A stretch of 64,000 nucleotides of DNA, taken from a virus. This document shows, one piece after another, positions 2,471 to 56,977 of this stretch. Where the stretch lies: the IMG/VR virus record IMGVR_UViG_3300045988_139374, positions 64,001 through 128,000 of that record. One strand, 5' to 3'. Positions within the stretch are counted from its first letter, which is position 1. Each line of letters begins with the position of its first letter. A program made the position numbers and the translations under genes. The notes under the pieces are model-generated. The model saw only the letters and a list, made by a program, of their open reading frames with translations. It was not told the DNA's origin and ran no database searches.

Positions 2471-2859
2471 TAACTAAGTAGTCGCATCTTTATAGGAATA
2501 TAGAGATGAAAACTTTATTGCAAAAGCTGGAAAAGGCTAAAGCTCTTCTGCCATTAGAAATAATGGAATCGAAAGATAGAAATAAGTGAAGAGATGGACC
2601 AAGGTGAAATAAAAGCTATATATTGAATAAGAGATAAATATATAGTCCTAAAGTCTATTAACAATGTCTAATCAGCACCTAGATAATTCTAGAGTTCAAC
2701 GACTATTCCGAAAGGAATTAGGGCCAAGTGGTACCGAAGTATAAAGGGTCCCAATGCTTATATAAGTAATGGATTGTGATATAGTCTAGCCTCTAGGTAA
2801 CACCTAGAGAAGTTCATAAGAGAACTGCAAAGATTAACGACCTTTGTGAATAAACTGCG
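2471..2859 (+). mobile_element. group I self-splicing intron, ORF-less (389 nt)
   Basis: Classical core elements are present: P-like TTGCAAAAGCTGGAAAAGGC, Q-like AGTCCTAAAGTC, R GTTCAACGACTAT (2694..2706) and S GATATAGTCT (2778..2787). The exon ends in U (cgaU pairs with GUCG at 2481..2484 as P1) and the intron ends in G at 2859. Splicing restores D-YS-SLYPS. Confidence 0.8.
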
Positions 2860-3345
2860 TACTCTTCTCTTTATCCATCTATTATTCTTGAGAATAATCT
2901 TGCTCCTAATACACAGGTTGGTAGAATTATTATTGAAGATCCTGATGATCCTATGAAACCTTTCTCTCTTAATGAGCATCCTGATATGTATTCTTCTGGA
3001 GATGAAGTTGCAAAATATTCTCGAGGTGGTGAATTCCTTGAGAATATGATCTCTGGCAATATAATGGAATTCTGTAGAAGATGGATGCGACTTGGAGATA
3101 TCAATCAATGTATGGATGATATTAGAGAATACTTCAAATATAATCCCTCTTATGGTAGAGGAATTGATGATGAAGGATCTAATCAGCAAGCTATATTCTT
3201 TACAAGAGATAATATGATAGATGCAGTTAATTTTGTAGAGAAAGATTATAATCTTGATACTGCAGGATTAATTTTCTATAGCAATCTTGACAACGATATA
3301 AAGAAAGATCTTTCTGAAGAAATTAAAAAAGGAGCGTTTCTGTGA
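2860..3345 (+). CDS. family B DNA polymerase, exon 2 (motif A YSSLYPSIILENN... then stop after about 161 aa)
   Basis: Same frame as listed ORF 2953..3345. Hand translation from 2860 gives YSSLYPSIILENNLAPNTQVGRIIIEDPDDPMKPF... Motif B (KxxxNSxYG) and motif C (YGDTDS) are absent. Confidence 0.75.
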   Translation, partial: YSSLYPSIILENNLAPNTQVGRIIIEDPDDPMKPFSLNEHPDMYSSGDEVAKYSRGGEFLENMISGNIMEFCRRWMRLGDINQCMDDIREYFKYNPSYGRGIDDEGSNQQAIFFTRDNMIDAVNFVEKDYNLDTAGLIFYSNLDNDIKKDLSEEIKKGAFL

Positions 3346-3944
3346 GTAGTGATTTTAAAGAATTCTGTTCATATATTCAACCAATATTGAATAGCTGTTC
3401 AGGGTTTATTAAAACTGATGGTTATATGACTCATTTTCCTGGAGTTATTGTAACTATGGATGCAGATCAGACATTCTATGGAATCATTCATATACCAGTA
3501 ATTTATAATCTATATTTTACTTGTATTATTAGTGATATCATGGCAATGAAGAAACCAGAAAATCAGATATTTGAAAATCTCTATTTTAGTGGAAGTAATA
3601 TTAAAGGAAATACGCTATTAAGAGCTTTTGAATTATTTGATAATATTGATAGTAAAGTTAAATGTATCTATTATGAACCTGATTGCTATAATATTAATGG
3701 TTTCACAACTGTATCTGCAGTGTCAAATATTGGAAGTGTAAATGTATTTACAGCTTCTGATAGATATAGAATACCTGCTAGTAAAGCAATTACTCCATTA
3801 TCTAAAGGAGATACTGCATCTCTTAAAATATATGATTATGTAGTAAATCCTATAGATCCAGGTGTAAAGACTATCAGATATTCTATGTTTAAAAAGAAAT
3901 TCAAACTAGTAGTAGATGTATATTCTAACATTCTTACAATTTGA
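3342..3944 (+). CDS. hypothetical protein (GTG start overlapping polymerase stop, GTGA)
   Basis: 200-aa ORF, translationally coupled and followed by a terminator. I recognise no polymerase motifs. Confidence 0.55.
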   Translation: MSSDFKEFCSYIQPILNSCSGFIKTDGYMTHFPGVIVTMDADQTFYGIIHIPVIYNLYFTCIISDIMAMKKPENQIFENLYFSGSNIKGNTLLRAFELFDNIDSKVKCIYYEPDCYNINGFTTVSAVSNIGSVNVFTASDRYRIPASKAITPLSKGDTASLKIYDYVVNPIDPGVKTIRYSMFKKKFKLVVDVYSNILTI

Positions 3945-3992: not shown

Positions 3993-4051
3993 GAAAATTA
4001 CTTACTTCCAAAACATCCATATAATTTATCACGCTAAGGAGGTCAATATAA

Positions 4052-6391
4052 ATGGCAAATGATAAAAATGCCAATCAGAGAAAGATCAATAATTCTCTAG
4101 ATTTGCTAGATCGTCAGGTCAATGACCTATACAGAACTACATATTCAACAACTAATACATCTGAAGAACTTAAATCTCAGCTATCTGATAAACTAGATGA
4201 TGCTATCAAGAAGTCTACACAAGAGGATGGAGATATCCAGAATCTTTCTAATACTTCTAAGATTATTATGAAGCTTATGAAGCCTGAAAATAATGGAGCT
4301 TCTAATAAGCTTAATAAATCTTTCGGTAAAGGTGTAGGAGATGATATCTCTGTTCTGTTTAACAATGCTGGTGTCCAGGCGTCTTTAATGGATACTTATG
4401 CAAAGACTAAATGGATCACTGAGCTTGATAATGAATTTGATCTAATCTGCAAATATATGCCTAAGTTACAAGCAGCTCTAGATATTAAGAGAGATGCAGT
4501 TCTTTGTTCTGATTTTTATACTAAAGAATTTCTTAATATAAGACCTAGATATGAAAATCCTACATCCTCTGCAAATGCTGCTATTTCTAGCAATATCGAA
4601 GAAATGGTTAAGAAGTATGATCTTTCCAATAGAGCAGAAAAATGGTATGACAATACTTCTAAGTATGGCGAACAATTTGTTTACTGTGTGCCTTATTCTT
4701 CAGCATTCCAAGAGCTTCTAAGGAGAAAGAATAATACTGGATACACTGCAACAATCCAGCATGAATCTACTATTTCTTCTAATAAAAATAGTAAGCCTAA
4801 TGTAACTGCAAATGCTGTAGTAAATGAAGCCGGTGAGATTTCTATTAAGGTTAACTTTGATACTTCTAAGGTTATTATAGAAGCTGTAGAGAAAGAACAA
4901 TATGTACGAAAAAATAGAGCTGCTGTAAATCCTAAATTTAGAGGATTGTCTGAATCTTTTATCATTACAGAATCTAATGATAAATTTGAAGATCATCTGA
5001 AAAAGAATGGTAAATCTACAGAAGTCAATTTTGATAATACAATTGGAGATACCATTGATTGGGAAGATGATAAGACAGCTGCAAATGGTCTAGTGGATCC
5101 TAATGGAACCGATTCTACTGCTAAGATTAGTCTGAATGGTGCAGTTCTTACTGATATTAAGCATGATAGAATTATTCCTATTTATATTGAGGATACAATA
5201 TTTGGCGGCTATTATATTAGATATAGTGAAGATCAGGATATCGATATCAATTCTATTGATAATATCACTGGATATAATTCTGTAACTGGAATGTTTGATA
5301 ACGGTCCTATTGGTGCTCAATCTTCTAATTATGATGAAGACGAAGTAAATAATAAGGATATGCTTCTAAGATCTCTAGCAGCAAATATTTCTGATAAAAT
5401 TGACTCTGCATTCATTAATGCAAATGCAGATCTCAAGAAAGAGTTGTATTTGCTTCTAAAGTTTAATGATAAATATAATCAGCTTGCTCATACTCCTGAT
5501 TTGGATATTGTATTTATTCCTGCAGATGATATTCATCATTTGAAGTTCAATGACGATCCTATTACTCATAGAGGAATTAGTGATCTTTGGAATTCGCTAG
5601 TATCTGCTAAGCAGTGGATTATGCTTAATACAACTTCTGTATTGGGATGGACTACTAGAGGCTTTGATCGTAGAATTTACTATGTGAAGCAGTCTCTAGA
5701 CACTAATGTCGCACAATCTCTTCTGAATGTTATTAGTACTATTAAGAAGGGCAATTTTGGTATTCGTCAGATGGAATCTGTTAATAATATTCTTAATATG
5801 GTTGGCAGATTTAATGACTTTGTTATTCCTGTTGGACCTAATGAAGATCCTCCGATTCGGTTTGATACTCAATCTGGTCAGCAATTTGATTTTCCTCAAG
5901 ACTTAATGGCAAATCTAGAAGAATCTGCTGTTAATGCAACTGATGTTCCTCTAGAAATTGTTAATAGTTCTACTGGTATGGACTTTGCAGTTAGATATAC
6001 AATGACTAATGCAAAGCTTCTCCGTAATGTCTTGAAGAGGCAAGCAAAGATGGAAGCATTCCTAGCTGATATCTTTACTAAGATTTATAAGTTCGAATAC
6101 AATGAAGATGTAGAGCTTACAGTCAATCTTCCTATTCCTGCTTTCTTGAGTATGACTCAAGGATCTCAGCTACTTCAGAGTGCTACTCAGTATGCTGAAT
6201 CTATTACTGATATTGAAATGAATGGCGAGCAAGATGAAGCTAAGAATGCATTCAAGAAACTTGTCATTCGTAAGCTAATTCCTTCTTATCTGTCTGATAA
6301 GGACATTGAAGAAATTAAGAATATTATCAAGATTGATAATAATATTACTAGCAGTGAAAATGGATTGAGTGCAGAAGATCTAGCAGACTAA
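4052..6391 (+). CDS. large virion-associated protein; portal candidate (unconfirmed)
   Basis: 779-aa ORF with RBS AAGGAGG, convergent with the sheath/tube operon, and with an acidic C-terminus. The assignment rests on size and context only. Confidence 0.3.
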   Translation: MANDKNANQRKINNSLDLLDRQVNDLYRTTYSTTNTSEELKSQLSDKLDDAIKKSTQEDGDIQNLSNTSKIIMKLMKPENNGASNKLNKSFGKGVGDDISVLFNNAGVQASLMDTYAKTKWITELDNEFDLICKYMPKLQAALDIKRDAVLCSDFYTKEFLNIRPRYENPTSSANAAISSNIEEMVKKYDLSNRAEKWYDNTSKYGEQFVYCVPYSSAFQELLRRKNNTGYTATIQHESTISSNKNSKPNVTANAVVNEAGEISIKVNFDTSKVIIEAVEKEQYVRKNRAAVNPKFRGLSESFIITESNDKFEDHLKKNGKSTEVNFDNTIGDTIDWEDDKTAANGLVDPNGTDSTAKISLNGAVLTDIKHDRIIPIYIEDTIFGGYYIRYSEDQDIDINSIDNITGYNSVTGMFDNGPIGAQSSNYDEDEVNNKDMLLRSLAANISDKIDSAFINANADLKKELYLLLKFNDKYNQLAHTPDLDIVFIPADDIHHLKFNDDPITHRGISDLWNSLVSAKQWIMLNTTSVLGWTTRGFDRRIYYVKQSLDTNVAQSLLNVISTIKKGNFGIRQMESVNNILNMVGRFNDFVIPVGPNEDPPIRFDTQSGQQFDFPQDLMANLEESAVNATDVPLEIVNSSTGMDFAVRYTMTNAKLLRNVLKRQAKMEAFLADIFTKIYKFEYNEDVELTVNLPIPAFLSMTQGSQLLQSATQYAESITDIEMNGEQDEAKNAFKKLVIRKLIPSYLSDKDIEEIKNIIKIDNNITSSENGLSAEDLAD

Positions 6392-6405
6392 TAATCAACA
6401 AAATT

Positions 6406-6440
6406 CCCAGAGGATCGTTAAGACCCTCTGGGATTATTAT
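6406..6440. terminator. bidirectional terminator hairpin CCCAGAGG/CCTCTGGG between convergent genes
   Basis: 8-bp GC-rich stem with A/T-rich flanks on both sides. Confidence 0.65.
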
Positions 6441-6493
6441 ATTAATTTACAGTGCCAAGGAGGATTTTTATTAGCACAATAATTTAATACTTA

Positions 6494-7375
6494 TTAGCCA
6501 AGCTGAGTGCCTCTAGAAGTCTTAGAAGCAACAGTGTTGCCCAGAGACTTGCTAGACAGAATGTCACCAACCAGACCGAATCCAGTATTCTCAACCTTAG
6601 ACTTATAAACATCGTACTGATAGTTGTTAGAGTCAAGGATAAGCATACGATTCTTATTCTTAGTGGTAAGATCATTCTGAAGCATCATGTTAGCATACTT
6701 ATTAACCTGATCGCCCATAATGGGATAGCAGTTAAAGCTCATGCTAACTTCCTGGAACTGAATATCGCCATGTGTAGAGTTATACATCTGACTAGTGGGA
6801 GCAGCAGTAGGCTGAGCATTGCACAACAGATATGCCTTCTCAATAGAACGCATAGTATTATCAGTGACATAGTACAGGAAAGTAAAGACCTCATAATCAG
6901 GACCAGGATCAGTAATAGAGCTACCAATCAGACCATGATAAGTCTTAGCCTTAGAATAAGGATCCTTAATACCAGTCAGATAATAAGACAGGTAGTTAGT
7001 CAGCAGAGAGCCAGAACGCTCGAAGAAGGACATGCTAACTTGGATAGAAGTATCCATGCTGACATTGTTGATAACCTGAAGTTCATTGACACCATTGGTA
7101 ACAGTACCAGCATCAGCAGTGATATCAGGAATACCATCAAGGCCACGGAACTCACCTTCCAGAATATGAACAAATCCATCCTGCAGGTTCTTAACCTTTG
7201 CATCTTGTGCAGCCAGCAGCTGCATATATCTAGGAACAGAAACAACAGTCAGGAAAGAATAGCCAGTCTCATAAAGATCAAACTGCTTCAGGTTGGAGTA
7301 GTCAGTAACACCCTTCATCAGAGTATACTCAGACACATTACGAGGCATCTTAATATAGTTCAAACCGACAGACAT
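6494..7375 (-). CDS. putative tail tube protein
   Basis: 293 aa, starts 18 nt after the sheath gene, RBS AAAGGAGG. The C-terminal pattern ...HGDIQFQEVSMSFNCYPI resembles the T4 gp19-type tube C-terminus. Codon usage is of the GC-richer 'structural' type. Confidence 0.5.
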   Translation of the reverse strand: MSVGLNYIKMPRNVSEYTLMKGVTDYSNLKQFDLYETGYSFLTVVSVPRYMQLLAAQDAKVKNLQDGFVHILEGEFRGLDGIPDITADAGTVTNGVNELQVINNVSMDTSIQVSMSFFERSGSLLTNYLSYYLTGIKDPYSKAKTYHGLIGSSITDPGPDYEVFTFLYYVTDNTMRSIEKAYLLCNAQPTAAPTSQMYNSTHGDIQFQEVSMSFNCYPIMGDQVNKYANMMLQNDLTTKNKNRMLILDSNNYQYDVYKSKVENTGFGLVGDILSSKSLGNTVASKTSRGTQLG

Positions 7376-7393: not shown

Positions 7394-9298
7394 TTAAGAA
7401 TTGTCACTGGTAGTATCAGTAACACCAGGGATCGGATTAGAGGACGGAGATCCCTCAACAGCAAAGACGTCAAAGACCTCAGCCTGCGGGAAATCTCTAT
7501 AATAGCAATACAGAGATGCATTGAAAATCTTATTAGCAGTCTGCACATCATCCTTAGTATAAACCAGAGTGATAGACTTAAAGAACTGCTCATACTTAGA
7601 AACGACGTTGTCCTGAATCAGATCCTTATACTTGCCGAAGTCAGTTGCATCGGGCTCCATCAGCATAAAGCGAATGGTAGGAACATAACGACGAATTGCC
7701 TTAACAACACGCTGTGTAACCAGAACATTGTTGATGTAAGACAGAGGACCATTATGATCCTGAGAAGTATAAGTGGACTGAATTGCTAGCTGACGATCAG
7801 CAGTCAGATTAACAAAGTTAACCTTCAGATCATCCAGAACCTGCTTCTGATCATAGTCAGGAGTAACACGAGGAATGATATTCAGAGTGCCCTCAATTGC
7901 ACTAGTGATGATGAAGTTGTTGAACTCACCAGCAATAGGTGCAGCAATATTGGTGCTATAGTGATTGACCAGCAGAGGAGCCAGATCATATCCCATAGTA
8001 ACACGAATTTCCTTATGAGAATACTCATCCAGGACATCATAGACAGACATATAGTCACCCACAAAGCAGCTCTGATTCCAACCAGAGCCAGCATCAAAGA
8101 GCAGCTGCACATCTTCTAGAGTCTCAATATTCAGACCTAGATCACGGAAATAGAAGAAGTCTTCCCGGAAATCCGCAAGAGATACGATTTGCCCCTTAAC
8201 ACTGAGAGGATAGTTGGCGTCAACACAAAAGTCAATCTTATGCTGATCCAGATCGAAGATCTCATCAGAGAACTCACCAGAGAAGAACTTAACTGCCTCA
8301 GCAGCCCACTCATCAGTAGCTGCTTCACCAGGGAACGGAGCATCACCAAACTTGCCGTTGCTACCAGACATCAGAGACATACCATAAACACTGGTAAGAT
8401 CCATGCCAGTATCATCAACACGAATGGTAGATAGAGCCTTACCCTTCAGAGAGCAACCGAACATGGGATCGATCTTATAAAGCTCATCAACAGTATAGCC
8501 AGTAACCTCAGCAACCTTTGCCAGGAATGCTTCCATACCGATATCATCTTGACCAACAATCAGCTGATCCATGGTACGGTTAGTCAGAAGCATGTTACGA
8601 CGCTCACCATTGACAGTATTAACTGCCTCAGGGTAAATAGAGAAACGCTGAGTCTCAACGATATCCTCATCCTCGACACTCATGATCTTATACAGCATAT
8701 AAGTCAGACGTCTAGAAGAAGTATAATCGGGAACAATACGTAGTTTCTTAACAGACTTGCCACGACCATTATCACAGACAACAAACAGAGGGAAGACTGT
8801 ATCAGTCTTCATAGCATCTGCCTTCTTCTTAACTTCTGCATAGGTCTTAGCATTCTCAACAGTCATAGTGGAATACTTAATCTTTGCAAAATTAGTCGTA
8901 GCAGGAGTGCCAGTGACCTCAGTAGTCTCCTTACCATGCTCATCAAGATACAGAGGCTTACCATCAGCAGAAGTCTTATTCTCCTTACCAGCAGTAATTT
9001 CAGCAGTGATGACTAGGTTAGCCAGAGTAGCATCTTCTGCAACAATACGCTTGCCCAGAACACGACCACCGGCCTTCAGGATTCTATGTGCTTCGAGCAG
9101 GGGCTGGCCATACTTAAAGAAGTTAGGAGTCTCGCCATACTCTTTCACAAAGTCATCATATACGTAATCAGTAATTTTCTCTGTGCCTTTGTCGGAGGAA
9201 AAGGCACACAGAAACAACGGCAGAGAGTCATCAGTCGAAGAAGCAGTACCCTTCGGCATTAGCACTTCATGCCAGTTAACTGTCATTCCAGCATACAT
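7394..9298 (-). CDS. putative contractile tail sheath protein
   Basis: 634 aa. The N-terminal pattern LFLCAFSSDKGTEK...GQPLLEAHRILKAGGRVLGKRIVAEDAT matches the conserved start of myovirus sheath proteins. The gene lies directly upstream of the tube candidate. Confidence 0.6.
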   Translation of the reverse strand: MYAGMTVNWHEVLMPKGTASSTDDSLPLFLCAFSSDKGTEKITDYVYDDFVKEYGETPNFFKYGQPLLEAHRILKAGGRVLGKRIVAEDATLANLVITAEITAGKENKTSADGKPLYLDEHGKETTEVTGTPATTNFAKIKYSTMTVENAKTYAEVKKKADAMKTDTVFPLFVVCDNGRGKSVKKLRIVPDYTSSRRLTYMLYKIMSVEDEDIVETQRFSIYPEAVNTVNGERRNMLLTNRTMDQLIVGQDDIGMEAFLAKVAEVTGYTVDELYKIDPMFGCSLKGKALSTIRVDDTGMDLTSVYGMSLMSGSNGKFGDAPFPGEAATDEWAAEAVKFFSGEFSDEIFDLDQHKIDFCVDANYPLSVKGQIVSLADFREDFFYFRDLGLNIETLEDVQLLFDAGSGWNQSCFVGDYMSVYDVLDEYSHKEIRVTMGYDLAPLLVNHYSTNIAAPIAGEFNNFIITSAIEGTLNIIPRVTPDYDQKQVLDDLKVNFVNLTADRQLAIQSTYTSQDHNGPLSYINNVLVTQRVVKAIRRYVPTIRFMLMEPDATDFGKYKDLIQDNVVSKYEQFFKSITLVYTKDDVQTANKIFNASLYCYYRDFPQAEVFDVFAVEGSPSSNPIPGVTDTTSDNS

Positions 9299-9437: not shown

Positions 9438-10220
9438 TTACATAGTGATGACTCTTTCTAGAGGACTCTCTTTATGAGTTCTCTTACCAGATTTTTCTTC
9501 ATCTGACAACAAGACAGCACTCATAATAGCTTCATCAAGATTCTCAGATGTCAAAGAAACAAACGGAGAAATATATTTAGAAGCTTCTTTGATTGAAATA
9601 GAAGTATATCCAGTCATTTTAGAATTAGCAGTTTTAGACAATCTAAAAGGAGTAGATATATCTTCAGGATCTCTACAGATCTTAGAATACAATAGTCCCA
9701 TTGCTTGAGCATGAATTTTGTATGTACCAGAATTCAATGCCATGCATTCAAATGGATATTGATATAATTCATTATAAGGAATAGTATTAGGAATTCTACC
9801 AGTCTGGATATGAAGTCTAAACAATTCTGCTAGATTATCCATATCTTGTTCAACATGGCAACGAGTAATTAGTTGATCGTCTTTATAGAAAATTAATACC
9901 CTATAATCAGAAGGATCTAGACCAGTATCAAGTTGAACATCCTTACGCTTTTCAATCTTTCCAGGACGGCAAAGGAAAATAGTAGGAAAATTAAATGCTC
10001 GTAGTTTACTAGGAGATCCATTAGCTGCGATAACTCGATAGTTAAAAGATCCCATTAGTCTTACATATGCTCCTTCAACTGTTGCTGAAGTAGATTTACC
10101 AGAACCAAAATAATCCTCAGGAATATAATATTCCAAAGAACCATCTTGATTAAATAGTAATGCATCTTCTTCCCTTCGTGCGAAAGGAGGAATTTCAGTA
10201 AATTTAAATGTTAGTGCCAT
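9438..10220 (-). CDS. hypothetical protein
   Basis: 260-aa ORF with RBS TAGGAGG. Confidence 0.6.
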   Translation of the reverse strand: MALTFKFTEIPPFARREEDALLFNQDGSLEYYIPEDYFGSGKSTSATVEGAYVRLMGSFNYRVIAANGSPSKLRAFNFPTIFLCRPGKIEKRKDVQLDTGLDPSDYRVLIFYKDDQLITRCHVEQDMDNLAELFRLHIQTGRIPNTIPYNELYQYPFECMALNSGTYKIHAQAMGLLYSKICRDPEDISTPFRLSKTANSKMTGYTSISIKEASKYISPFVSLTSENLDEAIMSAVLLSDEEKSGKRTHKESPLERVITM

Positions 10221-36015: not shown

Positions 36016-36104
36016 GCTGGAGTAGCTCAGCTGGCCAGAGCGGATGTTTTGTAAGCATCGTGCCTTTACGGATCTCGCAGGTTCGAATCCTGTCTCCAGC
36101 TCCA
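36016..36104 (+). tRNA. tRNA-like gene, anticodon TGT (Thr) with atypical 17-nt variable region, CCA encoded
   Basis: Acceptor GCTGGAG/CTCCAGC, D GCTC/GAGC, anticodon stem GATGT/GCATC with loop TTTGTAA, T GCAGG-TTCGAAT-CCTGT. However, 17 nt (GTGCCTTTACGGATCTC) lie between the anticodon and T arms. Confidence 0.6.
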
Positions 36105-44269: not shown

Positions 44270-44305
44270 TAAAAATTAAAACCCAAGAGGATTACTCCTC
44301 TTGGG
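44270..44305 (-). terminator. intrinsic terminator CCCAAGAGG/CCTCTTGGG + T-run
   Basis: 9-bp stem followed on the minus strand by TTTTAATTTTT. Confidence 0.75.
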
Positions 44306-44312
44306 ATAATTA

Positions 44313-44636
44313 TTATCTAGGAATACAGAGCATTTTCCATTTAATAGTCATGTTTGTAGTACTAACCAATTTATATCCATTATCATAATTTCCAAGTTTC
44401 CATACGTAAAACATTTGCATTGTATCATATGGAAAATCATTACTTGGTGTTGTAGATATGAATGATAATCCTGGATATATATCATATGGGATTGCCCACA
44501 TTGATAATACCCAATATTTATACACATCTAGATCTCCAGAGTACGATCCATTATAATCATGCCCATTTAAAGTTATAAGTTGTGTGGTAGATGTAGAAAC
44601 TGTTGTAAGGTTCTTCACTTTAATAGAAGCGTCAGA
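44313..44636 (-). other. cassette 3: ORF opening SDASIKVKNL..., no ATG and no RBS at the conserved junction
   Basis: Open from the codon after TAG (44637..44639). Begins with the box TGACGCTTCTA (44624..44634). The track's GTG start at 44618 has no SD. In the same frame as cassette 2, separated from it only by TAA-TTA-AAA-TAG. Confidence 0.5.
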
Positions 44637-44645
44637 CTATTTTAA

Positions 44646-45089
44646 TTATTTATTCACCCAATGATCTATATTATTCATATCATCATTATAAGTACTATTA
44701 TCTTTAATATACCAAAATTTGCATATAATAGGATTATTATAATCACGATATACTGATGTAGCAGAAATTGTTTCATCTATTGATAGATAAATACGACACC
44801 CATTATACATACCATAATATTTACTAAGTCCAAGGTCTGTTAATTCATCTCCTGGAAAAATAATCGCTGTATACCTATATAAGCTACTAACATTTCCAGC
44901 TATTTCTTTAATGGCATAACAAGGATATGCTTGTAAAACAACTATTGTATTTCTTAGCTGTGCATAATATTTTGTGGATGACTGTGGGATCTTGCACGTT
45001 CCACTTTCAATCTTAGAAGCGTCATACTCATTAAACATAGATAATATTTGCATGGTATGAAGTATCATAAGATGATGATGTACCATCAC
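44646..45089 (-). CDS. cassette 2: ORF containing YDASKIESG... junction
   Basis: The only cassette with upstream ATGs. The first 21 codons overlap the end of cassette 1 in another frame. Box TGACGCTTCTA at 45014..45024. Confidence 0.4.
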   Translation of the reverse strand: MMVHHHLMILHTMQILSMFNEYDASKIESGTCKIPQSSTKYYAQLRNTIVVLQAYPCYAIKEIAGNVSSLYRYTAIIFPGDELTDLGLSKYYGMYNGCRIYLSIDETISATSVYRDYNNPIICKFWYIKDNSTYNDDMNNIDHWVNK

Positions 45090-45255
45090 TCCAATGTTTT
45101 ATCCATCTACAATATAATTTTCCTTTATTTTGATAAACCCAGTCTGCATCATGGCTTACATCATCTAATATATCAAATCCTATCAATGTACCATTTAATG
45201 TATATCCATCTTTAGTAATATAAATATTACTAAGCTTCTTTATAGAAGCGTCAAA
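45031..45255 (-). other. cassette 1: 74-codon ORF FDASIKKLSNIYITKDG... with no Met, GTG or RBS
   Basis: Hand translation. Preceded in frame by TGA TAA and begins with the box TGACGCTTCTA (45243..45253). Absent from the ORF track because it has no start codon. Confidence 0.45.
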
Positions 45256-45257
45256 TT

Positions 45258-45303
45258 ATCAAAAAAAAAATAAAATGAGTGAAGATTTTATTCTTCACTC
45301 ATT
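45258..45303 (-). terminator. intrinsic terminator AATGAGTGAAGA/TCTTCACTCATT + T10
   Basis: 12-bp stem followed on the minus strand by TTTATTTTTTTTTT. Lies between gene 45311..45868 and cassette 1. Confidence 0.8.
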
Positions 45304-45310
45304 CTTTCAG

Positions 45311-45868
45311 TTATTTCTGAATGTCGGTGTATCTTGTAAATATATCGTATGCTCTATGAATAAGATTGGTATATTGTCCTTTAAAACTAAGATCATATAA
45401 TTCATGAATAACATCTGTTCCGATAATATTCATATCTTTATCGTACCTAATAATATTAATATTAGGTATAGTATTTATCGAAAACTGATATCCATATTTA
45501 GCTTTATACATATCTGTATTGAAAATAAGGTTGTTAAACTGTCCATTGCACACATCCATACATGGAATAACATTTACATCTACATCTTTTTTACCTGCTC
45601 TCATAGTATAGCTAGTATTAGGCGAAGCTATTCTAATATAACCATCAACAGAAACTCGAATATATCCATCTAATTTAAATTTATCACCATTTACATGGCA
45701 TAATACATATAAAATATTTCCTTTAATACGTTGAAAAGCTACTTCATCTTTATAATCTCTATTTCCAATAGGAATATTTTTTGGAATGATTGTTCCTAAA
45801 TCTCCATAGGTGAAAAAATCATTATTTTCACAATTAATTTCAGCGGTCAATGCACTAGTAATACCCAT
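45311..45868 (-). CDS. hypothetical protein
   Basis: 185-aa ORF with RBS AGAAAGGAAAA. Confidence 0.6.
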   Translation of the reverse strand: MGITSALTAEINCENNDFFTYGDLGTIIPKNIPIGNRDYKDEVAFQRIKGNILYVLCHVNGDKFKLDGYIRVSVDGYIRIASPNTSYTMRAGKKDVDVNVIPCMDVCNGQFNNLIFNTDMYKAKYGYQFSINTIPNINIIRYDKDMNIIGTDVIHELYDLSFKGQYTNLIHRAYDIFTRYTDIQK

Positions 45869-50117: not shown

Positions 50118-50798
50118 TTATTCCCAATATTCTAAAGATGATTGTCCAAAGAAAAATGCTTTAATTCTGCAGAAAATATAATGAATATATTCTTGCCTAC
50201 AGATATTATACAATATAGATCTATCAGATACAGGATTCTTTATATCTCTTGCGATGCATTTTTTAATTTCAATATTCTTAATTCCTTTAATACAATCCAT
50301 ACGAATATCTAATATTGCAGAATTATAAAAAGTGCAAGGTTCATAAAAGATAGAATCATGCCAATTGGAAAAATTCATTAAACTATTGCTGAATAATACT
50401 CTATTGAATTTACAATGACTAAATAAAGCTCTATCCATCTTACAAGTCTCAAATCTCATATGCTTGAAACTACAATGCTCACTCCAACTAGATACAAGGT
50501 TTGACATTGTGAAAGAAGCAAAAGAGAAATCACAATCGTCAAAATGGACACTATCTAATTTAGTATTAAAGAATTTTGCTCCAAAGAAATTACAATGCCT
50601 AAAAACAGATACGTCTAAATTTGCATTAGAAAAATCTACATTTTGAAAGCTTGCATATTGAAGATTTTTAAATGACAGATCCATCCCGCTAAGATCTAAT
50701 CCATCAAATATTGCTCTATATGACTCCCAATCTTCTACGTCTTGTGCAAGATAATGAGCGTGTCTCTCAAGAATCTTATTAAGGGTTTCCTCTGTCAT
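50118..50798 (-). CDS. pentapeptide-repeat protein
   Basis: About 25 consecutive A(D/N)(L/F)xx-type pentads (ANLDV SVFRH CNFFG AKFFN TKLDS VHFDD CDFSF ASFTM ...). Confidence 0.8.
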   Translation of the reverse strand: MTEETLNKILERHAHYLAQDVEDWESYRAIFDGLDLSGMDLSFKNLQYASFQNVDFSNANLDVSVFRHCNFFGAKFFNTKLDSVHFDDCDFSFASFTMSNLVSSWSEHCSFKHMRFETCKMDRALFSHCKFNRVLFSNSLMNFSNWHDSIFYEPCTFYNSAILDIRMDCIKGIKNIEIKKCIARDIKNPVSDRSILYNICRQEYIHYIFCRIKAFFFGQSSLEYWE

Positions 50799-50911: not shown

Positions 50912-53900
50912 ATGGTCGTACTTGAAGATCTTAAAGATTTGCTTATGTATAAGAAGCAATTCTTCCTTCCTGTGAATATGAAGGATAAACGTCATGGATC
51001 TGCAATCATGCTCATGACCCCAAATTATCAGTCATCTATGCTAGCAATGACTGAACCTTATACACTAAATAGACGTACCTTTGAGTCTTATTATATCGAA
51101 AAAACTATTACAAGATATATTCAACAACAGACTGAATCTGTTGTTGAAATTACTGATCCTGGTGAGTATCTTTTTGAAGTTGAATTGACTTCTAAAGAGA
51201 GAAAAGAACTTGATGATAGTGAATTCGGCATTCCTGAACAAAGAAGATATCCTCTGAATGATGAATCTCATGTACTAGCTGCTATTAGATTCTTTAATCA
51301 TGTAGAAAAGGAATATGAAGCAGAACTTGCTAAGAATATCATTAAAAAGATTAAAGAATATGATATGGCTGACAAAGTTCATGTAGGAGATGGAAATAGA
51401 TTTAAGCCCTATTGGGAAAAATCTGGGCTTGCTAATAAATCTACTAATGAATCTGGTCAAATTGTTAAATCTGCTCCTGATCCTGAGGAATATAAGAAAA
51501 CTCTTATTAATGCAGTAAAGGATACTCTTCATCTTAAGGGATATAAATGTGGAATTCATAAAGATGATAGATGGGGTACTGATGAATTTATCAATGGTGT
51601 GAATTCTCTTTATATTGGCAGATATGATGATACAGAAATTAAAGATGTAGTCAATCAAATCAAAGCTGTTATTGGTCCTGGATATAAAGTATGTGAAGAC
51701 GATTTTAATACTGTCTTTATTGATGGTCCTAATAAAGCAATGAGAGAATTCACTGAAGATGAATATTTCAATGAGTTTAATATTAAGAGCTTTATTAGTG
51801 GTACTGCTATATCTTCTGCTAATAAGAAGATGAATAAGGATTATCGTCTTCTAACCTTTACTGGATATGAAAGAGATATCAATGTTGTGCAGAAGTATAT
51901 TGATCAAGAATATATTAAGGCATGCATGGCAAAAGTCAAACAAAAGATGCCTTATGATAAGATCAATATTATTTGCTGTGGTGATGGATCTAAGCCTGAA
52001 GAATTTACTCCTACTTCTGTTCTGGTATATACTCCTGAGGCTTTTAAACATGCCGGTGGAAAGTTTGGATATGGAGACTATATTAAATATATTCTCCAGC
52101 TATATGCAGTTTATTGCATCAAGATGCCTATTGGAAGCAAATATGAAAGAGTTCTAGATAGTCTTGCAGAACCTGCTGCTATTCTATTTTCTGGAGTTGC
52201 AGCAAAAGAAATTGCTAAGAAAACTAATGATGATCAATTTACTGTAGAACGAGTATTCCAATATATTATTGATAAAGATGGCATTGATACACTACTTAAA
52301 ATTCTCAGATACAATGCAACTGCTGCTGTTATGAAATATGCAGCAGAATATGGAAAGATTTATTATCCTATTAATAGATCTCTCTTTGTAGAAATAGCTG
52401 AAGAGAATGAAGAATATCTAAAATCTCTTCAAGAAGATACTACTATTCCTGTTCCTAATCCTATGCCTGATAGTATTAGAAAGCTTGGAAATACTGCAGA
52501 ACGCATTAAGAGAAGGCTTAAGTCTAAGACTATTTATAAGCTTAATAAACTTAAAAGAGATCTTGAAAAAGGAACTGGAGATTCTGATAATCCTGGATAC
52601 ACTATTCAAAGTCTTGATGTAGGTATTCCTACTCCTTCTAATGGATCTTCTGCTCCTAGTGAATCTTTCAGTCTTTCTAAACTGAATCTCTGGTCTCAAG
52701 GAGATTATGTAAATGAAAATGGATTTGTATATCTATTTGAAGATTCTACAAAATATGATATGCAACTTCGTAAAGCTCTTTATAGAGATAGATTGAAAAA
52801 TGATAAAGCTGTTATTCAGCTATATAAGAAGGTAAAAGCTGATATGCCTATCATCAGATATACCTTTGTTAAAATGAATAGATACAATAACCGTAATCTA
52901 TTCTATGATCTATCTTATTACAATGAGTCTTTCTTTAGAAATATGGCTATGATCAATGATAGTGATCGTAAAAATATTATGAGACTCTTTAAAACCTATA
53001 TTGAGCTTATGGAACGTCTACTAAATGATGATTCTCTAAGTGGATATTCTAAGAAAACTGTTTTTATCCCTGTACTAGATTGGAGACATAATAACTCTCT
53101 AAAGATGTGGATGTATAAAGAGGATATTAATCCTATTTCTGCCATCTATTATTATATGAGAAATAATCCTAAAGAACTCTCTAAACTATTTGGAGATAAA
53201 GACGTTGTTTTTCTTGGAGCTAAAAATTACTTCAAAGTAAACTTTGCTAAGGATGATTTTAGTAAGAGTGGAAATGTAACTAAATTCCTAAATCTTATTA
53301 AAAGAATTGTAGCCCTTGGGTATAATTCTCCTGCAGATCCTGATCCTGAAGGTGAGCTTGAAGATTCTCCTAAGGGAATTGCTATGGCTATCATTGATAA
53401 GGTTGAACAATCTAAAAATGTTCAAATCAATGATATCTCTAAACTAGATAATCTTTCTAATGATCAGAATCTTTATAATGATCAACCTGCAAAGGCAAGT
53501 ATGATTCCTGATGAAACTGCTGTGAAAAAGAAAGTAGTAGATACTGCATATAAAGTATCTGATGATGTGGTCACTACTACTTATGCAACAAATGTCAAAA
53601 ATAAGGTTGTTAAAGTTTCTGTAGATAGAAAGACTGTTACTAAAGAAGAGAATAAAGCAGCCACTGGAGTATCTGGTACCAAATCTGTAAATAGTACTTC
53701 TTCTAAAGAAAAGAAGGATGCTATTGTTGACTCTGTTGCTCAGGCAGCAAGAAATTCTGACAGTGTAGATACTGCTATGAATAAACTTGATGACGATCAG
53801 CAGTTTAAAGATATGGTCAATGCTATTCAGAATGATGATGAAGAGAATGTCAGAGTTGATAAGTCTCAAGCATCTGCTGTTATTGCTAAGCAAGAAGAAT

Positions 53901-56900
53901 TTCATAAGAAAGACGTTGAAGGAAAATCTGTTCAGGATCTTCTAAATGTGGATACCGCAGAAAAAGAATTGCCTGAAACTAAGTTAAAAGTATCTTCTAT
54001 CAATGACGATTGGCAACATATGACTTTCATGAACTTTGATAAAGATTATGATCCTGATAGTGATATTGTAAAGATGCTCGATGCTATGCAGCATTGGACT
54101 TATCCTATTGCTGTTACAAATGTTAGTGTTAAAGATAATTCTACATCTGAAGACATTGTAAATCTATGGACCATTGAATGTATAGATTATAAGAAAACTA
54201 AGTTTACACTTAAGGTTGATATTCCTAAATTTATCAATGGATCCAACTTCCTAAAACTCCGTGGCAATGAAAAGACACTGATGATTCAATCTGCACTTCT
54301 ACCCATTATCAAAACTGGTTTGGGAGAGTGCCAAATTATTGGTTCTGGCGGATATAACAAGATCTTTGTCAGAAGATTTGGTTCTCGTAAGGGTCAATCT
54401 AATGCCTATGCTAATAAACTCATTAGAGCTATTAGCAAGTATTGTGATAAGCATGATGATATTAAGTATGTAGCTGGTGATAATACTAAGGTTTGTACTA
54501 AATATGAATTGCCTATCGACTATATTGACCTTGCCCAAGTATTTAACTCTATTGAATCTGCTGGTCTAAAGATTTTCTTTAATCAAGATGAACTTAGATC
54601 TGAATATGAAGTGGATGATACTAAGGGCATTCCTATTGGTGTATTTACTCAATTTGATTCTAAGGATAAGACTGGTAAGGATGTAATCATTTACTATGAC
54701 GGAACTTCTAGTCCTACTCTAGCTGGTTATATCACTACTTTGCTATTTTATAGATCTCAGGAGTTTATGGAATTCTATAATAGTCTAAAGATTACTGGTA
54801 CTCGCTGTACTTATTCTAAGGCTAGTATTTTGAATTGTGAGATTCCTGTTATTCTAATTTGCTCTTATCTTGAGGGTCTGATTAAGACCATGAATAAGGC
54901 TGGAATTAAGTATGAATTCGTACAAGAGCTAAATAAGGATATCAAATATAGTACTTATCAGGATTATATTGAATTCTCTGATGGCTATCTTGTATATGAA
55001 GCAAATTACTCTTCTAGCATGCTTATGAATGGTCTTAAGGAAAATGATACTTCTTCTTATTCCATCAAGGATGTAAATAATAGAAGAATGTATCTAGAGT
55101 TCCTTGAGACTTATACTAATAGTCTAAATTCTGATGGTCTAGAAAACTCTTATGACTGTATGATTGATCCTATTACTAAGGAAATTCTTGAGAGATTCAA
55201 GCTTCCTAGTGATTACGTTGGTATTCTAATCCATGCAAGTAATATGCTTGCAGATAATAAGTACATACGTCATATCGATCAAGGTGGTCGTAGATGGCGT
55301 CGTAAAGAACTTATCGCAGGTTACTTCTATAAAGCTCTTACTACTTCTTATCAGGATTATGCTAACCAGAATCGTCATACTCGTAAGAGAACAAAGATGA
55401 CGATTAAGCAATCTGCTGTTATCGATCTAATTGTTTCTAAAGACCCTGCTACCTCTGACCTTTCTATTAACAATGCTCTAAATGACGTTGAATGCTCAAA
55501 CTCTGTTACTAACAAAGGTCTAGTTGGTATGAATGTTGCTCGTGGTTATACTATTGCTACACGTGGATATGATGATTCTATGCTTAATCTATTAGGCATG
55601 GATACTGGATTCTCTGGCAATGTTGGTATTAATCGTCAAGCAACTGTTAATGCTAATATTGAAGGTGGAAGAGGATTTGTTAAAACTATTGATGGTAATA
55701 CAGATAAATTGTCTTCTGCTGCTTCTTTTACTATGACAGAAGCTGTTACTCCTCTTGGTACTACTCATGATGATCCTCCTAGATCTCTGATGACTTATGT
55801 CCAGACTTCTAAGCACATGATTCGTTGTGATAATAACGATCCTACTCTACTTACTACTGGTGCGGATGAAGCATTGCCTTATCTGACTTCTGATATCTTT
55901 GCTTATAAAGCTAAGGAAGATGGTAAGATTGTAGAATTGGTACAAGAAGGTTTTGGTAAGAGAAACTATATCGTTGTAGAATATAAGAGTGGTAAACATG
56001 AATTTATCAATCTTTCTGAAGAGGTTAAGAAAAACTCTGATGGTGGATATTATGTGCCTATGAAACTTGATACAGATATGAGTGTTGGTAAGACTTTCAA
56101 AGCTGGTCAAATTCTTGCATATGATAAGCTATCTTTCTCTAAATCTCTTGGCGAATCTGGTAATCTAGCTGCTAATATGGGCACTCTTGCAAAGATTGCT
56201 ATTATTAATACTGATGAAGGATTCGAAGACTCTGCAATGATTACTGAATCTTTTGCCAATAAACTAGGAACTCAAGTTATTCAAGGAATTGAAACTAGAC
56301 TAGAGAAAGGTTCTAATATTCAGGTTAGTAAATATCTTGGAGATCAAGTTATGGAAGGTGATACTCTATTCACTTTCCAAGCTGACTTTGATGACGAAGC
56401 TATGAATAGCCTGCTCAAGAATCTAGCAATGGATGCTGGTGAAATTTCTGAATTGGGCAGAAATCCTGTTAAATCTAAATATACTGGTATCGTATGTGAT
56501 ATTCAAATCTATCGTACATGCGATATTGATACTTGCTCCGAATCTCTACGTAAATTCATTGGACTTTATGAGAAGAGAGTTAAAGATATCAAAAAAGTAT
56601 ATGATCAGTACGGAATTGATTCTGCCATTCTTCCTAAGACTGGTAAAGTTCCTGAAGTTGGCAAAACTAAAAATCTAGATGATTCTGTTCTAGTAATCTA
56701 TTATATCAAATATACAGATACTATGTCTGCTGGTGATAAGATTACTTTCTATTCTGCAAATAAGGGTATCATTAAGAAGATTATTCCTAAGGATGTAGAA
56801 CCTTATACTGCTTTCAGACCTAATGAGCATATTGATAGTTTCATGTCTCTAAGCTCTATCTCTGGACGTATGACTTGTTCTATTCCTCTATTTGCAGCAA

Positions 56901-56977
56901 CTTCTAAACTTATGGTAGAATTGGATAGATCCGTTAAAGATCTAGCTGGAATTCCTTACGACGAGAGTCAATTGTAA
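50912..56977 (+). CDS. RNA polymerase beta-like subunit fused to an N-terminal extension of about 1040 aa
   Basis: From about nt 54030: VDIPKFINGSNFLKLRGNEKTLMIQS (compare IPLMT..G.FIINGTERVIVSQ), RRWRRKELIAGYFYKAL, NKGLVGMNVARGYTIATRGYDDSMLNLLGMDTGFSGNVGINRQ, HDDPPRSLMTYVQTSKHMI (compare [20 protein letters not shown]), EGFEDSAMITESF (compare GYNFEDSI), GDKITFYSANKGIIKKIIP (compare GDKMAGRHGNKGV) and SGRMTCS. Confidence 0.85.
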   Translation: MVVLEDLKDLLMYKKQFFLPVNMKDKRHGSAIMLMTPNYQSSMLAMTEPYTLNRRTFESYYIEKTITRYIQQQTESVVEITDPGEYLFEVELTSKERKELDDSEFGIPEQRRYPLNDESHVLAAIRFFNHVEKEYEAELAKNIIKKIKEYDMADKVHVGDGNRFKPYWEKSGLANKSTNESGQIVKSAPDPEEYKKTLINAVKDTLHLKGYKCGIHKDDRWGTDEFINGVNSLYIGRYDDTEIKDVVNQIKAVIGPGYKVCEDDFNTVFIDGPNKAMREFTEDEYFNEFNIKSFISGTAISSANKKMNKDYRLLTFTGYERDINVVQKYIDQEYIKACMAKVKQKMPYDKINIICCGDGSKPEEFTPTSVLVYTPEAFKHAGGKFGYGDYIKYILQLYAVYCIKMPIGSKYERVLDSLAEPAAILFSGVAAKEIAKKTNDDQFTVERVFQYIIDKDGIDTLLKILRYNATAAVMKYAAEYGKIYYPINRSLFVEIAEENEEYLKSLQEDTTIPVPNPMPDSIRKLGNTAERIKRRLKSKTIYKLNKLKRDLEKGTGDSDNPGYTIQSLDVGIPTPSNGSSAPSESFSLSKLNLWSQGDYVNENGFVYLFEDSTKYDMQLRKALYRDRLKNDKAVIQLYKKVKADMPIIRYTFVKMNRYNNRNLFYDLSYYNESFFRNMAMINDSDRKNIMRLFKTYIELMERLLNDDSLSGYSKKTVFIPVLDWRHNNSLKMWMYKEDINPISAIYYYMRNNPKELSKLFGDKDVVFLGAKNYFKVNFAKDDFSKSGNVTKFLNLIKRIVALGYNSPADPDPEGELEDSPKGIAMAIIDKVEQSKNVQINDISKLDNLSNDQNLYNDQPAKASMIPDETAVKKKVVDTAYKVSDDVVTTTYATNVKNKVVKVSVDRKTVTKEENKAATGVSGTKSVNSTSSKEKKDAIVDSVAQAARNSDSVDTAMNKLDDDQQFKDMVNAIQNDDEENVRVDKSQASAVIAKQEEFHKKDVEGKSVQDLLNVDTAEKELPETKLKVSSINDDWQHMTFMNFDKDYDPDSDIVKMLDAMQHWTYPIAVTNVSVKDNSTSEDIVNLWTIECIDYKKTKFTLKVDIPKFINGSNFLKLRGNEKTLMIQSALLPIIKTGLGECQIIGSGGYNKIFVRRFGSRKGQSNAYANKLIRAISKYCDKHDDIKYVAGDNTKVCTKYELPIDYIDLAQVFNSIESAGLKIFFNQDELRSEYEVDDTKGIPIGVFTQFDSKDKTGKDVIIYYDGTSSPTLAGYITTLLFYRSQEFMEFYNSLKITGTRCTYSKASILNCEIPVILICSYLEGLIKTMNKAGIKYEFVQELNKDIKYSTYQDYIEFSDGYLVYEANYSSSMLMNGLKENDTSSYSIKDVNNRRMYLEFLETYTNSLNSDGLENSYDCMIDPITKEILERFKLPSDYVGILIHASNMLADNKYIRHIDQGGRRWRRKELIAGYFYKALTTSYQDYANQNRHTRKRTKMTIKQSAVIDLIVSKDPATSDLSINNALNDVECSNSVTNKGLVGMNVARGYTIATRGYDDSMLNLLGMDTGFSGNVGINRQATVNANIEGGRGFVKTIDGNTDKLSSAASFTMTEAVTPLGTTHDDPPRSLMTYVQTSKHMIRCDNNDPTLLTTGADEALPYLTSDIFAYKAKEDGKIVELVQEGFGKRNYIVVEYKSGKHEFINLSEEVKKNSDGGYYVPMKLDTDMSVGKTFKAGQILAYDKLSFSKSLGESGNLAANMGTLAKIAIINTDEGFEDSAMITESFANKLGTQVIQGIETRLEKGSNIQVSKYLGDQVMEGDTLFTFQADFDDEAMNSLLKNLAMDAGEISELGRNPVKSKYTGIVCDIQIYRTCDIDTCSESLRKFIGLYEKRVKDIKKVYDQYGIDSAILPKTGKVPEVGKTKNLDDSVLVIYYIKYTDTMSAGDKITFYSANKGIIKKIIPKDVEPYTAFRPNEHIDSFMSLSSISGRMTCSIPLFAATSKLMVELDRSVKDLAGIPYDESQL

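Follow-up and report, generated by a model that had tools for sequence, protein, structure and literature searches.

Box-headed open reading frames in the window

Three consecutive open reading frames (ORFs) on the minus strand of a 64,000-nucleotide (nt) stretch of viral DNA (positions 64,001 to 128,000 of IMG/VR record IMGVR_UViG_3300045988_139374, termed the window) each open with the same 11-nt sequence, TGACGCTTCTA, termed the junction box. The ORFs are termed cassettes 1 to 3; their positions and those of other features are shown in Table 1. Loci fetched for comparison are designated by L numbers and public proteins by P numbers. The window belongs to a jumbo phage of ~225–277 kb that recurs in many human-gut assemblies, and genes near the array encode a prohead protease, virion proteins, sheath, terminase and RNase H.

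The window contains three exact copies of the box, all on the minus strand, and at each of them the reading is x-D-A-S. With up to one mismatch allowed, the only further matches are at positions 1954 and 63901, both within ordinary long genes. The count of five was reached by none of 100 shuffles of the sequence. A preliminary description of this DNA had reported an identical box at the head of three frames, and the exact positions and frame lengths confirm this. Also confirmed are the intrinsic-terminator-like hairpins that bound the array on both sides, the TGA TAA in frame immediately 5′ of cassette 1, the complete lack of Met codons in that cassette, and the TAA-TTA-AAA-TAG that separates cassettes 2 and 3, which lie in one frame. 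The sequences after the box had been described as unrelated; BLASTP comparison of the three peptides shows no similarity among them (E ≥ 2).

Two of the three cassettes had been considered start-less. This holds for cassettes 1 and 3, but the count is too low. An ATG is present five codons upstream of box 2 (ATGTTTAATGAGTAT) and arises from the ...YV-stop ending of cassette 1. In relatives this codon is ATA. The ATG is incidental, and effectively all three cassettes are start-less.

Table 1. Positions of features in the window and at loci L225 and L226
Feature	Locus	Position	Strand	Description
Junction box 1 (TGACGCTTCTA)	window	45243..45253	-	exact match
Junction box 2 (TGACGCTTCTA)	window	45014..45024	-	exact match
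Junction box 3 (TGACGCTTCTA)	window	44624..44634	-	exact match
Cassette 1	window	45031..45255	-	74 codons + TAA; KKLSNIY...ANIIYV family
Cassette 2	window	44646..45026	-	Y-DASKIESG..., 126 codons + TAA
Cassette 3	window	44313..44636	-	S-DASIKVKNLTT...CIPR, 107 codons + TAA
Intrinsic-terminator-like hairpin of upstream 185-aa gene, left array boundary	window	45272..45305	-	14-bp stem + T-run
Promoter-like AT-rich element abutting box 1	window	45255..45271	-	T-run + GATAAT; from sequence
Intrinsic-terminator-like hairpin closing the array	window	44282..44305	-	from sequence
185-amino acid (aa) ORF, normal start	window	45311..45868	-	ORF within variable segment
Master-gene leader	L225	9440-10000
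Master-gene leader	L226	3540-4000
Master gene	L225	10001-11272		423-aa ORF with Shine-Dalgarno sequence and ATG
Variable repeat	L225	11170-11258		diversity-generating retroelement
Template repeat	L225	12250-12338		diversity-generating retroelement
Reverse transcriptase	L225	12388-13779		diversity-generating retroelement

The array is flanked by genes for a 258-aa virion protein and RNase H, which are 92–100% conserved in close relatives. Between them lie 0.6–2.2 kb that carry 0–3 box-headed ORFs, the types of which differ by strain. Cassette number and type vary even among near-identical strains, and the box is present at every junction. For example, P0001 reads MFNEY directly followed by DAS and cassette 3, i.e. 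cassette 2 has been removed. Cassette 3 is the most frequent last cassette at this locus; cassette 2 is found, among the fetched loci, only in the window and L018. In L015 and L002 the whole array is gone through a deletion between AATC microhomologies (at ~480–500 of the variable segment). The deletion ends just before the first box and inside the closing terminator, of which half a hairpin remains, its 5′ arm being lost. The 185-aa ORF is swapped for, or joined by, a 74–78-aa gene in other strains; it has no match in protein family searches.

An expressed gene with the box at an internal junction

The preliminary description proposed that the cassettes are orphan C-terminal modules that can replace the tip of a fibre gene located elsewhere, and that the box or a DAS junction should then occur within a full-length fibre-like gene. 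Such a gene (termed the master gene) is found in relatives. When a long ORF of the DAS type is used as a query, many proteins of ~420–439 aa are obtained that open with MAIIDKIKVGSTTYDVSPS..., continue for 137 residues to ...IYSMNQTLTSLN and then read DASNK.... In P0046, P0052 and P0054 (~420 aa) and at locus L225, a Shine-Dalgarno (SD) sequence and ATG are followed by a 137-aa N-terminal part (termed the N-part) that ends in ...TSLN, the exact box, and DASNK.... The box of L225 lies 143 codons past the SD and ATG, at ...CTA AAT GAC GCT TCT AAT..., and the coding end of the N-part at this junction reads ...CTAAATGACGCTTCTA.

The N-part is conserved at 12 or more loci. Its copies (80–97% identity) are joined at the exact box to eight distinct modules, and the proposal is thus supported. 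A long module, which is associated with a diversity-generating retroelement (DGR; see below), is fused to the N-part in L225, L229, L231 and L232. A metagenome scan with the N-part alone shows small cassettes of 69–98 aa fused to it in L236–L239. The fused cassette of L239, DASIKKLSNIYIT...HANIVYI, is 49% identical to cassette 1 of the window (E = 1.5e-18), that of L237 reads DASTKIKS...RVYYI, and L236 and L238 carry two other small cassettes. The module of L238 is weakly similar to the C-terminal end of cassette 2. In L226, L233 and L234 modules are fused to the N-part with a diverged box (DAY...).

The same families are also found in start-less form. The long module is start-less in L034, L224 and L246, though fused in other strains, and the KKL family of cassette 1 is start-less in the window, L034, L045 and L094. 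The master junction and the silent copies share an identity of just 11–12 nt. The 11-nt length first given for the junction is therefore right for identity with the expressed gene; among the start-less cassettes themselves, however, the conserved motif is longer (see below).

L233 also displays a 442-aa ORF (positions 2148–3473) made up of the first ~150 residues of a DGR-adjacent accessory ORF (269 aa in L225), the box, and a long DAS module. Thus the box can join modules to a second N-terminal partner.

Breakpoints at the box and the leader of the master gene

Another box and cassette begin 6–7 nt past the stop codon of the fused cassette in L238 and L239, and the expression site thus heads an array. 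L239 can be compared with L045 at the same locus. The homologies to the left and to the right overlap solely in the box (L045 positions 8817–8832), and the block inserted in L239 consists of a box with its cassette, a second box (box′) with its cassette, and a third (box*) followed by leader and N-part.

The leader of the master gene is ~560 nt long. The 5′ edge of the leader and N-part unit is a variant box, TGACGCTATTAC, located behind a terminator and ATAATC. A hairpin and five repeats of TTGTGAAGAC...TTTAAGA are present in the leader. The extended box recurs there in inverted form (termed the anti-box), ~165 nt before the ATG; this copy is complementary to 15–16 nt of the extended box. It is locally conserved between two lineages that have otherwise diverged, and is mutated in L229. 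The anti-box of L075 was considered as a stand-alone non-coding RNA gene, but a 17-mer scan yields no homologous locus of that kind, and the sequence is a conserved part of the master-gene leader. The unit of promoter and N-part is bounded by box-type sites, and its genomic position differs between strains.

Genes next to the master gene

The long module of the master gene has a template repeat (TR), a variable repeat (VR) and a reverse transcriptase (RT). Template adenines account for 11 of the 13 differences between TR and VR in L225. This adenine specificity identifies the long module as a DGR target. The RT is missing from some strains (L224), and the three cassettes of the window are without TR/VR.

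A Xer-like tyrosine recombinase is encoded ~4 kb from the master gene, near this locus in two strains; none is present at the window locus. It scores as Xer-type and falls below the cut-offs for integron integrases. At L225 its gene spans positions 5018–6007, and that of an HNH-like protein, also beside the master locus, spans positions 6084–7310. A paralogue of the N-part, with a fibre-repeat protein after it, is likewise encoded near the L225 master gene. The master product may be a receptor-binding fibre, as suggested by its context, i.e. the targeting by a DGR, the paralogue beside a fibre-repeat protein, and a match to the IMC domain that is weak and below the cut-off.

A genome-wide family of start-less open reading frames

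Scans of viral contigs show the box at many further loci of the same genomes. The preliminary description had named a box found nowhere else in the genome as one of several signs that would together indicate gene decay; the box is not confined in this way. A total of 92 distinct DAS ORFs of the start-less type were counted in 474 kb of related DNA, with dozens per genome in related gut jumbo phages of ~270 kb, and their arrays differ between near-identical strains. L246, whose genome is nearly identical to that of the window, carries ten further silent cassettes, and the cassette 1 family has paralogues at other loci. Most of the ORFs are 68–125 aa long and three are of 250–306 aa (overall range 68–306 codons). 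Residues I, Y, S, N and T are abundant in them, and ...YYI is a frequent ending. In 50 of the 92, a stop codon lies one codon before the GAC.

The start-less cassettes display the consensus T-A-R-T-(C/A)-TGACGCTTCT-A-N-N-A-A. Synonymous variation is absent from the box codons for D, A and S but present in codon 5 (Lys). Orthologous cassettes have ratios of nonsynonymous to synonymous substitution (dN/dS) of 0.2–0.5 (0.21–0.49 for orthologues of cassette 3), which shows purifying selection and indicates real coding sequences. Some paralogue pairs have a dN/dS above 1. The intact ORFs and the orthologue ratios contradict the alternative, offered earlier, of decayed tandem duplicates.

The cassette 1 family is predicted by AlphaFold2 to form a compact all-beta domain of 74 residues (pLDDT, the predicted local distance difference test score, 94.1), with no significant match in the PDB or BFVD. 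The model for cassette 3 failed (pLDDT 37). Profile searches of 1.8 billion proteins show the cassette 3 family to be restricted to this clade, always as small proteins. Fold and sequence searches gave nothing significant as to function, and a DNA search of GenBank phages gave no match.

A few members of the family depart from the usual form. L075 (positions 4037–4260) has a KKL-type cassette that is broken by an in-frame stop (...GSTIY*) and resumes in another frame (...HANIVYI); judged by its sequence, it is a decaying member of the archive. A relative of cassette 3 in L096 (positions 9990–10030) has a mutated box, GAC ACT TCT (D-T-S), and is one of few with an ATG three codons upstream, which overlaps the stop before it (AAATGA). 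This upstream ATG is also present in P0013, where the box is intact.

Box hits outside the clade are in unrelated genes that share the k-mer by descent, and the number of double hits is about that expected by chance. In several unrelated smaller phages (L026/L037/L060, L149, L161/L208, L163/L168/L175) two in-frame copies of TGACGCTTCT occur in structural genes, e.g. a portal-MuF-like ORF with ATDASKK and ATDASIKK. The number of these double loci is close to chance, yet every copy is in the D-A-S frame.

Start signals and promoters of the cassettes

Conventional starts hidden near the box were ruled out. No start or near-cognate codon is present at a fixed distance from the box in the 34 start-less ORFs analyzed, ATG, GTG and TTG are wholly absent in three of the 34, and no SD sequence precedes the DAS cassettes. 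An RNA element was also ruled out, as the box region has no Rfam match, no transfer-messenger RNA (tmRNA) and no conserved fold.

Three recoding mechanisms were considered and rejected: an NTG overlapping the box (CTG/ATG/TTG-ACG-CTT-CTA) followed by a –1 frameshift; a +1 shift at the TGA-C of the box, of the release factor 2 or antizyme type; and bypassing of the gene 60 type, from the upstream gene or the previous cassette. The sequences have neither slippery nor matched codons, and their upstream frames and last codons are inconsistent with such schemes. An alternative genetic code is rejected because long ordinary ORFs read well in table 11. None of the phage tRNAs (Gly, Gln, Thr, Leu(tag), and Met(cat) with G1-C72) fits a dedicated decoder. 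The G1-C72 pair shows tRNA-Met(cat) to be of the elongator or Ile2 type and not an initiator. A tRNA-Leu(tag)/tRNA-Met(cat) pair is found beside DAS arrays in L034 (7014–7204), L019 (2459–2649), L040 (6119–6309) and L224 (5122–5312).

A T-run followed by (G/T)ATAAT ends 1 nt before TGACGC at all first-in-array boxes, relatives included. The same element occurs at ordinary genes, where an SD- and ATG-containing leader comes after it. The box itself is confined to DAS ORFs and thus does not serve as a general phage promoter. Internal boxes lie from –2 to 19 nt past the previous stop, and terminators bound the arrays. Early promoters of phage AR9 start 6 nt after an AT-rich element (PMC5312081); by analogy, the 5′ end of a cassette transcript would fall inside the box.

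Probable exchange of modules at the box

The ORFs of the window are quite probably silent alternative C-terminal modules of a fibre-like gene outside the window, exchanged by recombination from box to box. The observations that point to this are the master gene with the identical box at its junction, fusions that differ by strain, breakpoints in the box, and purifying selection on the cassettes. The master gene would supply the promoter, SD, ATG and the constant N-part, followed by the box (GAC GCT TCT, D-A-S). A crossover within the box would join this constant part in frame to a new tip, since every stored module opens with the same box. The arrays would act as archives that gain, lose and exchange box-bounded blocks. 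If the stretch between two direct boxes of an array is deleted, the next cassette would move into the expressed position. Exchange with remote arrays would require two crossovers, one at a box on either side, or else gene conversion or a move of the unit of promoter and N-part, which is box-bounded and could land ahead of different arrays. Exchange may be frequent or programmed, or it may be an occasional evolutionary event. Candidate catalysts are general recombination on 11–16 bp, or the Xer-like recombinase or HNH-like protein beside the master locus.

Several points weigh against this explanation. The 11–12 nt shared at the junction are short for RecA-type recombination, the candidate recombinases are not tied to the box, and the box has no dyad symmetry. 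The evidence is wholly comparative, strain versus strain, and the fibre or receptor-binding role is suggested by context. The N-part is absent from the window and from L246. In addition, the first boxes abut a promoter-like element and the arrays end in terminators, a hint of transcription that would also allow the cassettes to be expressed where they are.

A more elaborate form would be a programmed switch of host range. A box-bounded mobile “activator” unit (promoter, leader with anti-box and repeats, ATG and N-part) would be moved among more than 30 silent cassettes per genome by a dedicated recombinase or nuclease, so that phage bursts contain differing tips, with the DGR layered on one class of tip. 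This form is tentative. If it is correct, two independent diversification engines act on one protein.

The box may also be the core site of a site-specific recombination system similar to a shufflon or integron, in which the Xer-like tyrosine recombinase ~4 kb from the master gene excises, integrates or inverts box-bounded units, the unit of promoter and N-part included, at high frequency. This is a sub-mechanism of module exchange, not an alternative to it, and it is possible, though less likely than not. In two strains the recombinase, which resembles Xer and integron integrases, is encoded close to the master locus. The variant box TGACGCTATTAC and the junction box delimit the N-part unit, and the inverted anti-box before the ATG is conserved. 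The five leader repeats could be accessory binding sites (putative), the box codons are invariant even at synonymous positions, and cassettes occur on both strands. However, most sites of tyrosine recombinases have inverted arms, which the box lacks. Boxes are for the most part direct repeats, so that reciprocal exchange with distant arrays would delete segments of the genome, and a Xer-type recombinase may merely resolve genome multimers.

Expression of the cassettes in place, as free proteins of ~75–125 aa through a signal independent of start codon and SD, is unlikely, but it is compatible with module exchange and the two are not exclusive. A transcript from the abutting AT-rich promoter would be nearly leaderless, with its 5′ end in or close to the box, and ribosomes would re-initiate after the preceding stop to read the internal cassettes. 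It would account for the AT-rich element, which lies 1 nt before every first-in-array box, even in a divergent intergenic region without a terminator, and which also drives ordinary genes; the phage encodes an RNA polymerase (RNAP) of the phiKZ/AR9 type, for which the AR9 early start (PMC5312081) is the parallel. The terminator-bounded arrays with closely spaced internal boxes, conserved bases that reach upstream of the in-frame stop, the co-occurrence of a mutated box with an ATG overlapping the previous stop in L096, and the self-contained domain of the AlphaFold2 model also agree with it. Against it are the lack of a start or near-cognate codon at a fixed distance from the box and the lack of a conserved RNA fold, Rfam or tmRNA match. 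The fused forms already provide a sufficient, conventional route of expression, and we know of no bacterial mechanism for translation to start without a start codon in such a setting.

Joining at the RNA level is very unlikely. Here the anti-box of the leader would pair with the box of a cassette transcript, and trans-splicing or template switching by the RT would follow with no stable change in the DNA. The complementarity of the anti-box, the RT beside the master gene in some strains, and cassette arrays that look transcribed would suit this, but DNA-level fusions are directly present in several strain assemblies and no ribozyme or intron model matches. The RT is explained by a standard DGR with its TR/VR pair and is absent from some strains, and the anti-box is mutated in L229.

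That the cassettes are functionless, decaying remnants of tandem duplications or past exchanges is barely credible: start codons are absent, one relative's cassette is interrupted by a stop (L075, position 4037) and two strains have lost all cassettes at the window locus, but there are 92 distinct intact ORFs of 68–306 codons in a genome of ~30% GC, with orthologue dN/dS of 0.2–0.5, an invariant box, a confident fold for cassette 1, and fused, expressed versions of the same families.

Relation to known systems

Exchange of modules at the box would resemble antigenic variation by silent cassettes, as in pilE/pilS of Neisseria, vlsE and the vls cassettes of Borrelia (with 17-bp flanking repeats), and the archives of variant surface glycoprotein genes in trypanosomes. 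In these systems, as here, one expression site gives the promoter, start and constant 5′ part, many silent copies are promoterless and truncated at the 5′ end, a short border sequence is common to cassettes and expression site, and the cassettes are intact and under selection. Four corresponding elements are found in the phage: an expression locus, start-less silent copies, a shared border, and modules that are silent in some genomes and fused in others. Unlike in these systems, the cassettes are carried by a jumbo phage of lytic type, and the gene product is a fibre-like protein of the virion. The junction is of 11–12 nt and on the 5′ side only, the cassettes are whole unrelated domains and not variants, and the archives are dispersed in many small arrays with a constant unit that is apparently mobile.

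Invertible systems (Mu G/Gin, P1 C/Cin, p15B Min, and the R64 shufflon with Rci) use inverted sites and two to seven alternatives in a compact locus beside a dedicated invertase. As in the phage, a constant N-terminal part is joined in frame to alternative C-terminal parts, with the crossover site in the coding junction; for their nearby recombinase gene, the Xer-like gene ~4 kb from the master gene is a candidate counterpart. In the phage, by contrast, the sites are mostly direct repeats, with dozens of alternatives per genome at many loci. Boxes within an array are direct; the inverted ones are the leader anti-box and some arrays on the opposite strand.

Orphan tips of Rhs and CdiA, the comparison made in the preliminary description, are likewise start-less C-terminal modules downstream of or apart from a full-length gene, with a short junction for replacement of the tip. 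Here, however, there are no immunity genes, toxin domains, PxxxxDPxGL or VENN motifs, and the modules are beta domains (~75–125 aa) of a virion protein. No family hits are found, the junction reads ...TSLN-DAS, and no paired small ORFs follow the cassettes. Integrons have an attC site, an imperfect hairpin, at the 3′ end of each cassette, and attI and Pc beside the integrase gene; the box is 5′, linear and without a conserved fold, and the cassettes are start-less. A DGR of the BPP-1 Mtd type is present alongside, with a VR in the long module and its TR and RT; the tip of one protein is diversified in both ways. The DGR mutates one module in place, whereas the box system swaps whole modules.

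The PeSL promoter/stem-loop motifs are associated with modular shuffling in T4-type phages (PMC2839356, PMC4122927). There, too, a short motif that borders small variable ORFs is a recombination junction, with strain-specific insertions, deletions and swaps in hyperplastic regions near promoter and terminator elements. PeSL ORFs are complete, have their own starts and are separated by an intergenic motif, whereas the box forms the first codons of start-less modules and joins these in frame to another gene. A hairpin, AT-rich element and box do precede the arrays here, but the ORFs are start-less and the motif is coding.

Literature searches yielded no description of the motif in a phage context or of a comparable phage system. 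Compared with the logic of pilE/pilS, vls, variant surface glycoproteins, Mu G and the shufflon, the differences are the phage host, the tiny 5′-only junction, the number and dispersal of the cassettes, the direct sites, the apparently mobile constant unit and the coexistence with a DGR.

Fibre tips determine the host range of phages. To our knowledge, variation of tips within one genome has been limited to inversion between two to seven alternatives and to point diversification by DGRs. The gut jumbo phage stores dozens of tip domains that are unrelated to one another and maintained by selection, all behind a single in-frame junction of 11 nt. Should switching be active, a virus of bacteria would be using the logic of antigenic variation. 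It would account for the strain-level hypervariability of gut jumbo phages, offer a natural plug-in site for the engineering of fibre tips, and explain a class of start-less ORFs that are at present mis-annotated, as gene callers give them spurious extensions at the N-terminus. Public proteins P0027–P0038, P0045 and P0073 are DAS ORFs with such extensions, e.g. MVVVQELVLKIIMQILFIFNES followed by DAS...; the gene callers reach an ATG by reading the end of the previous cassette in another frame.

Other features of the window

A beta-like protein of a multisubunit RNAP of the phiKZ/AR9 type (2,021 aa; phrog_3148, E = 1.8e-134) is encoded at positions 50912–56977 on the plus strand. Its gene is adjoined by one for a pentapeptide-repeat protein at positions 50118–50798 on the minus strand. 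An 89-nt tRNA-Thr(tgt) at positions 36016–36104 (plus strand) clusters with tRNA-Gly(tcc) and tRNA-Gln(ttg). It displays a long variable arm of ~17 nt and thus combines a tRNA body of class II with an anticodon for Thr; its homologue in L004 is a normal tRNA of 76 nt.

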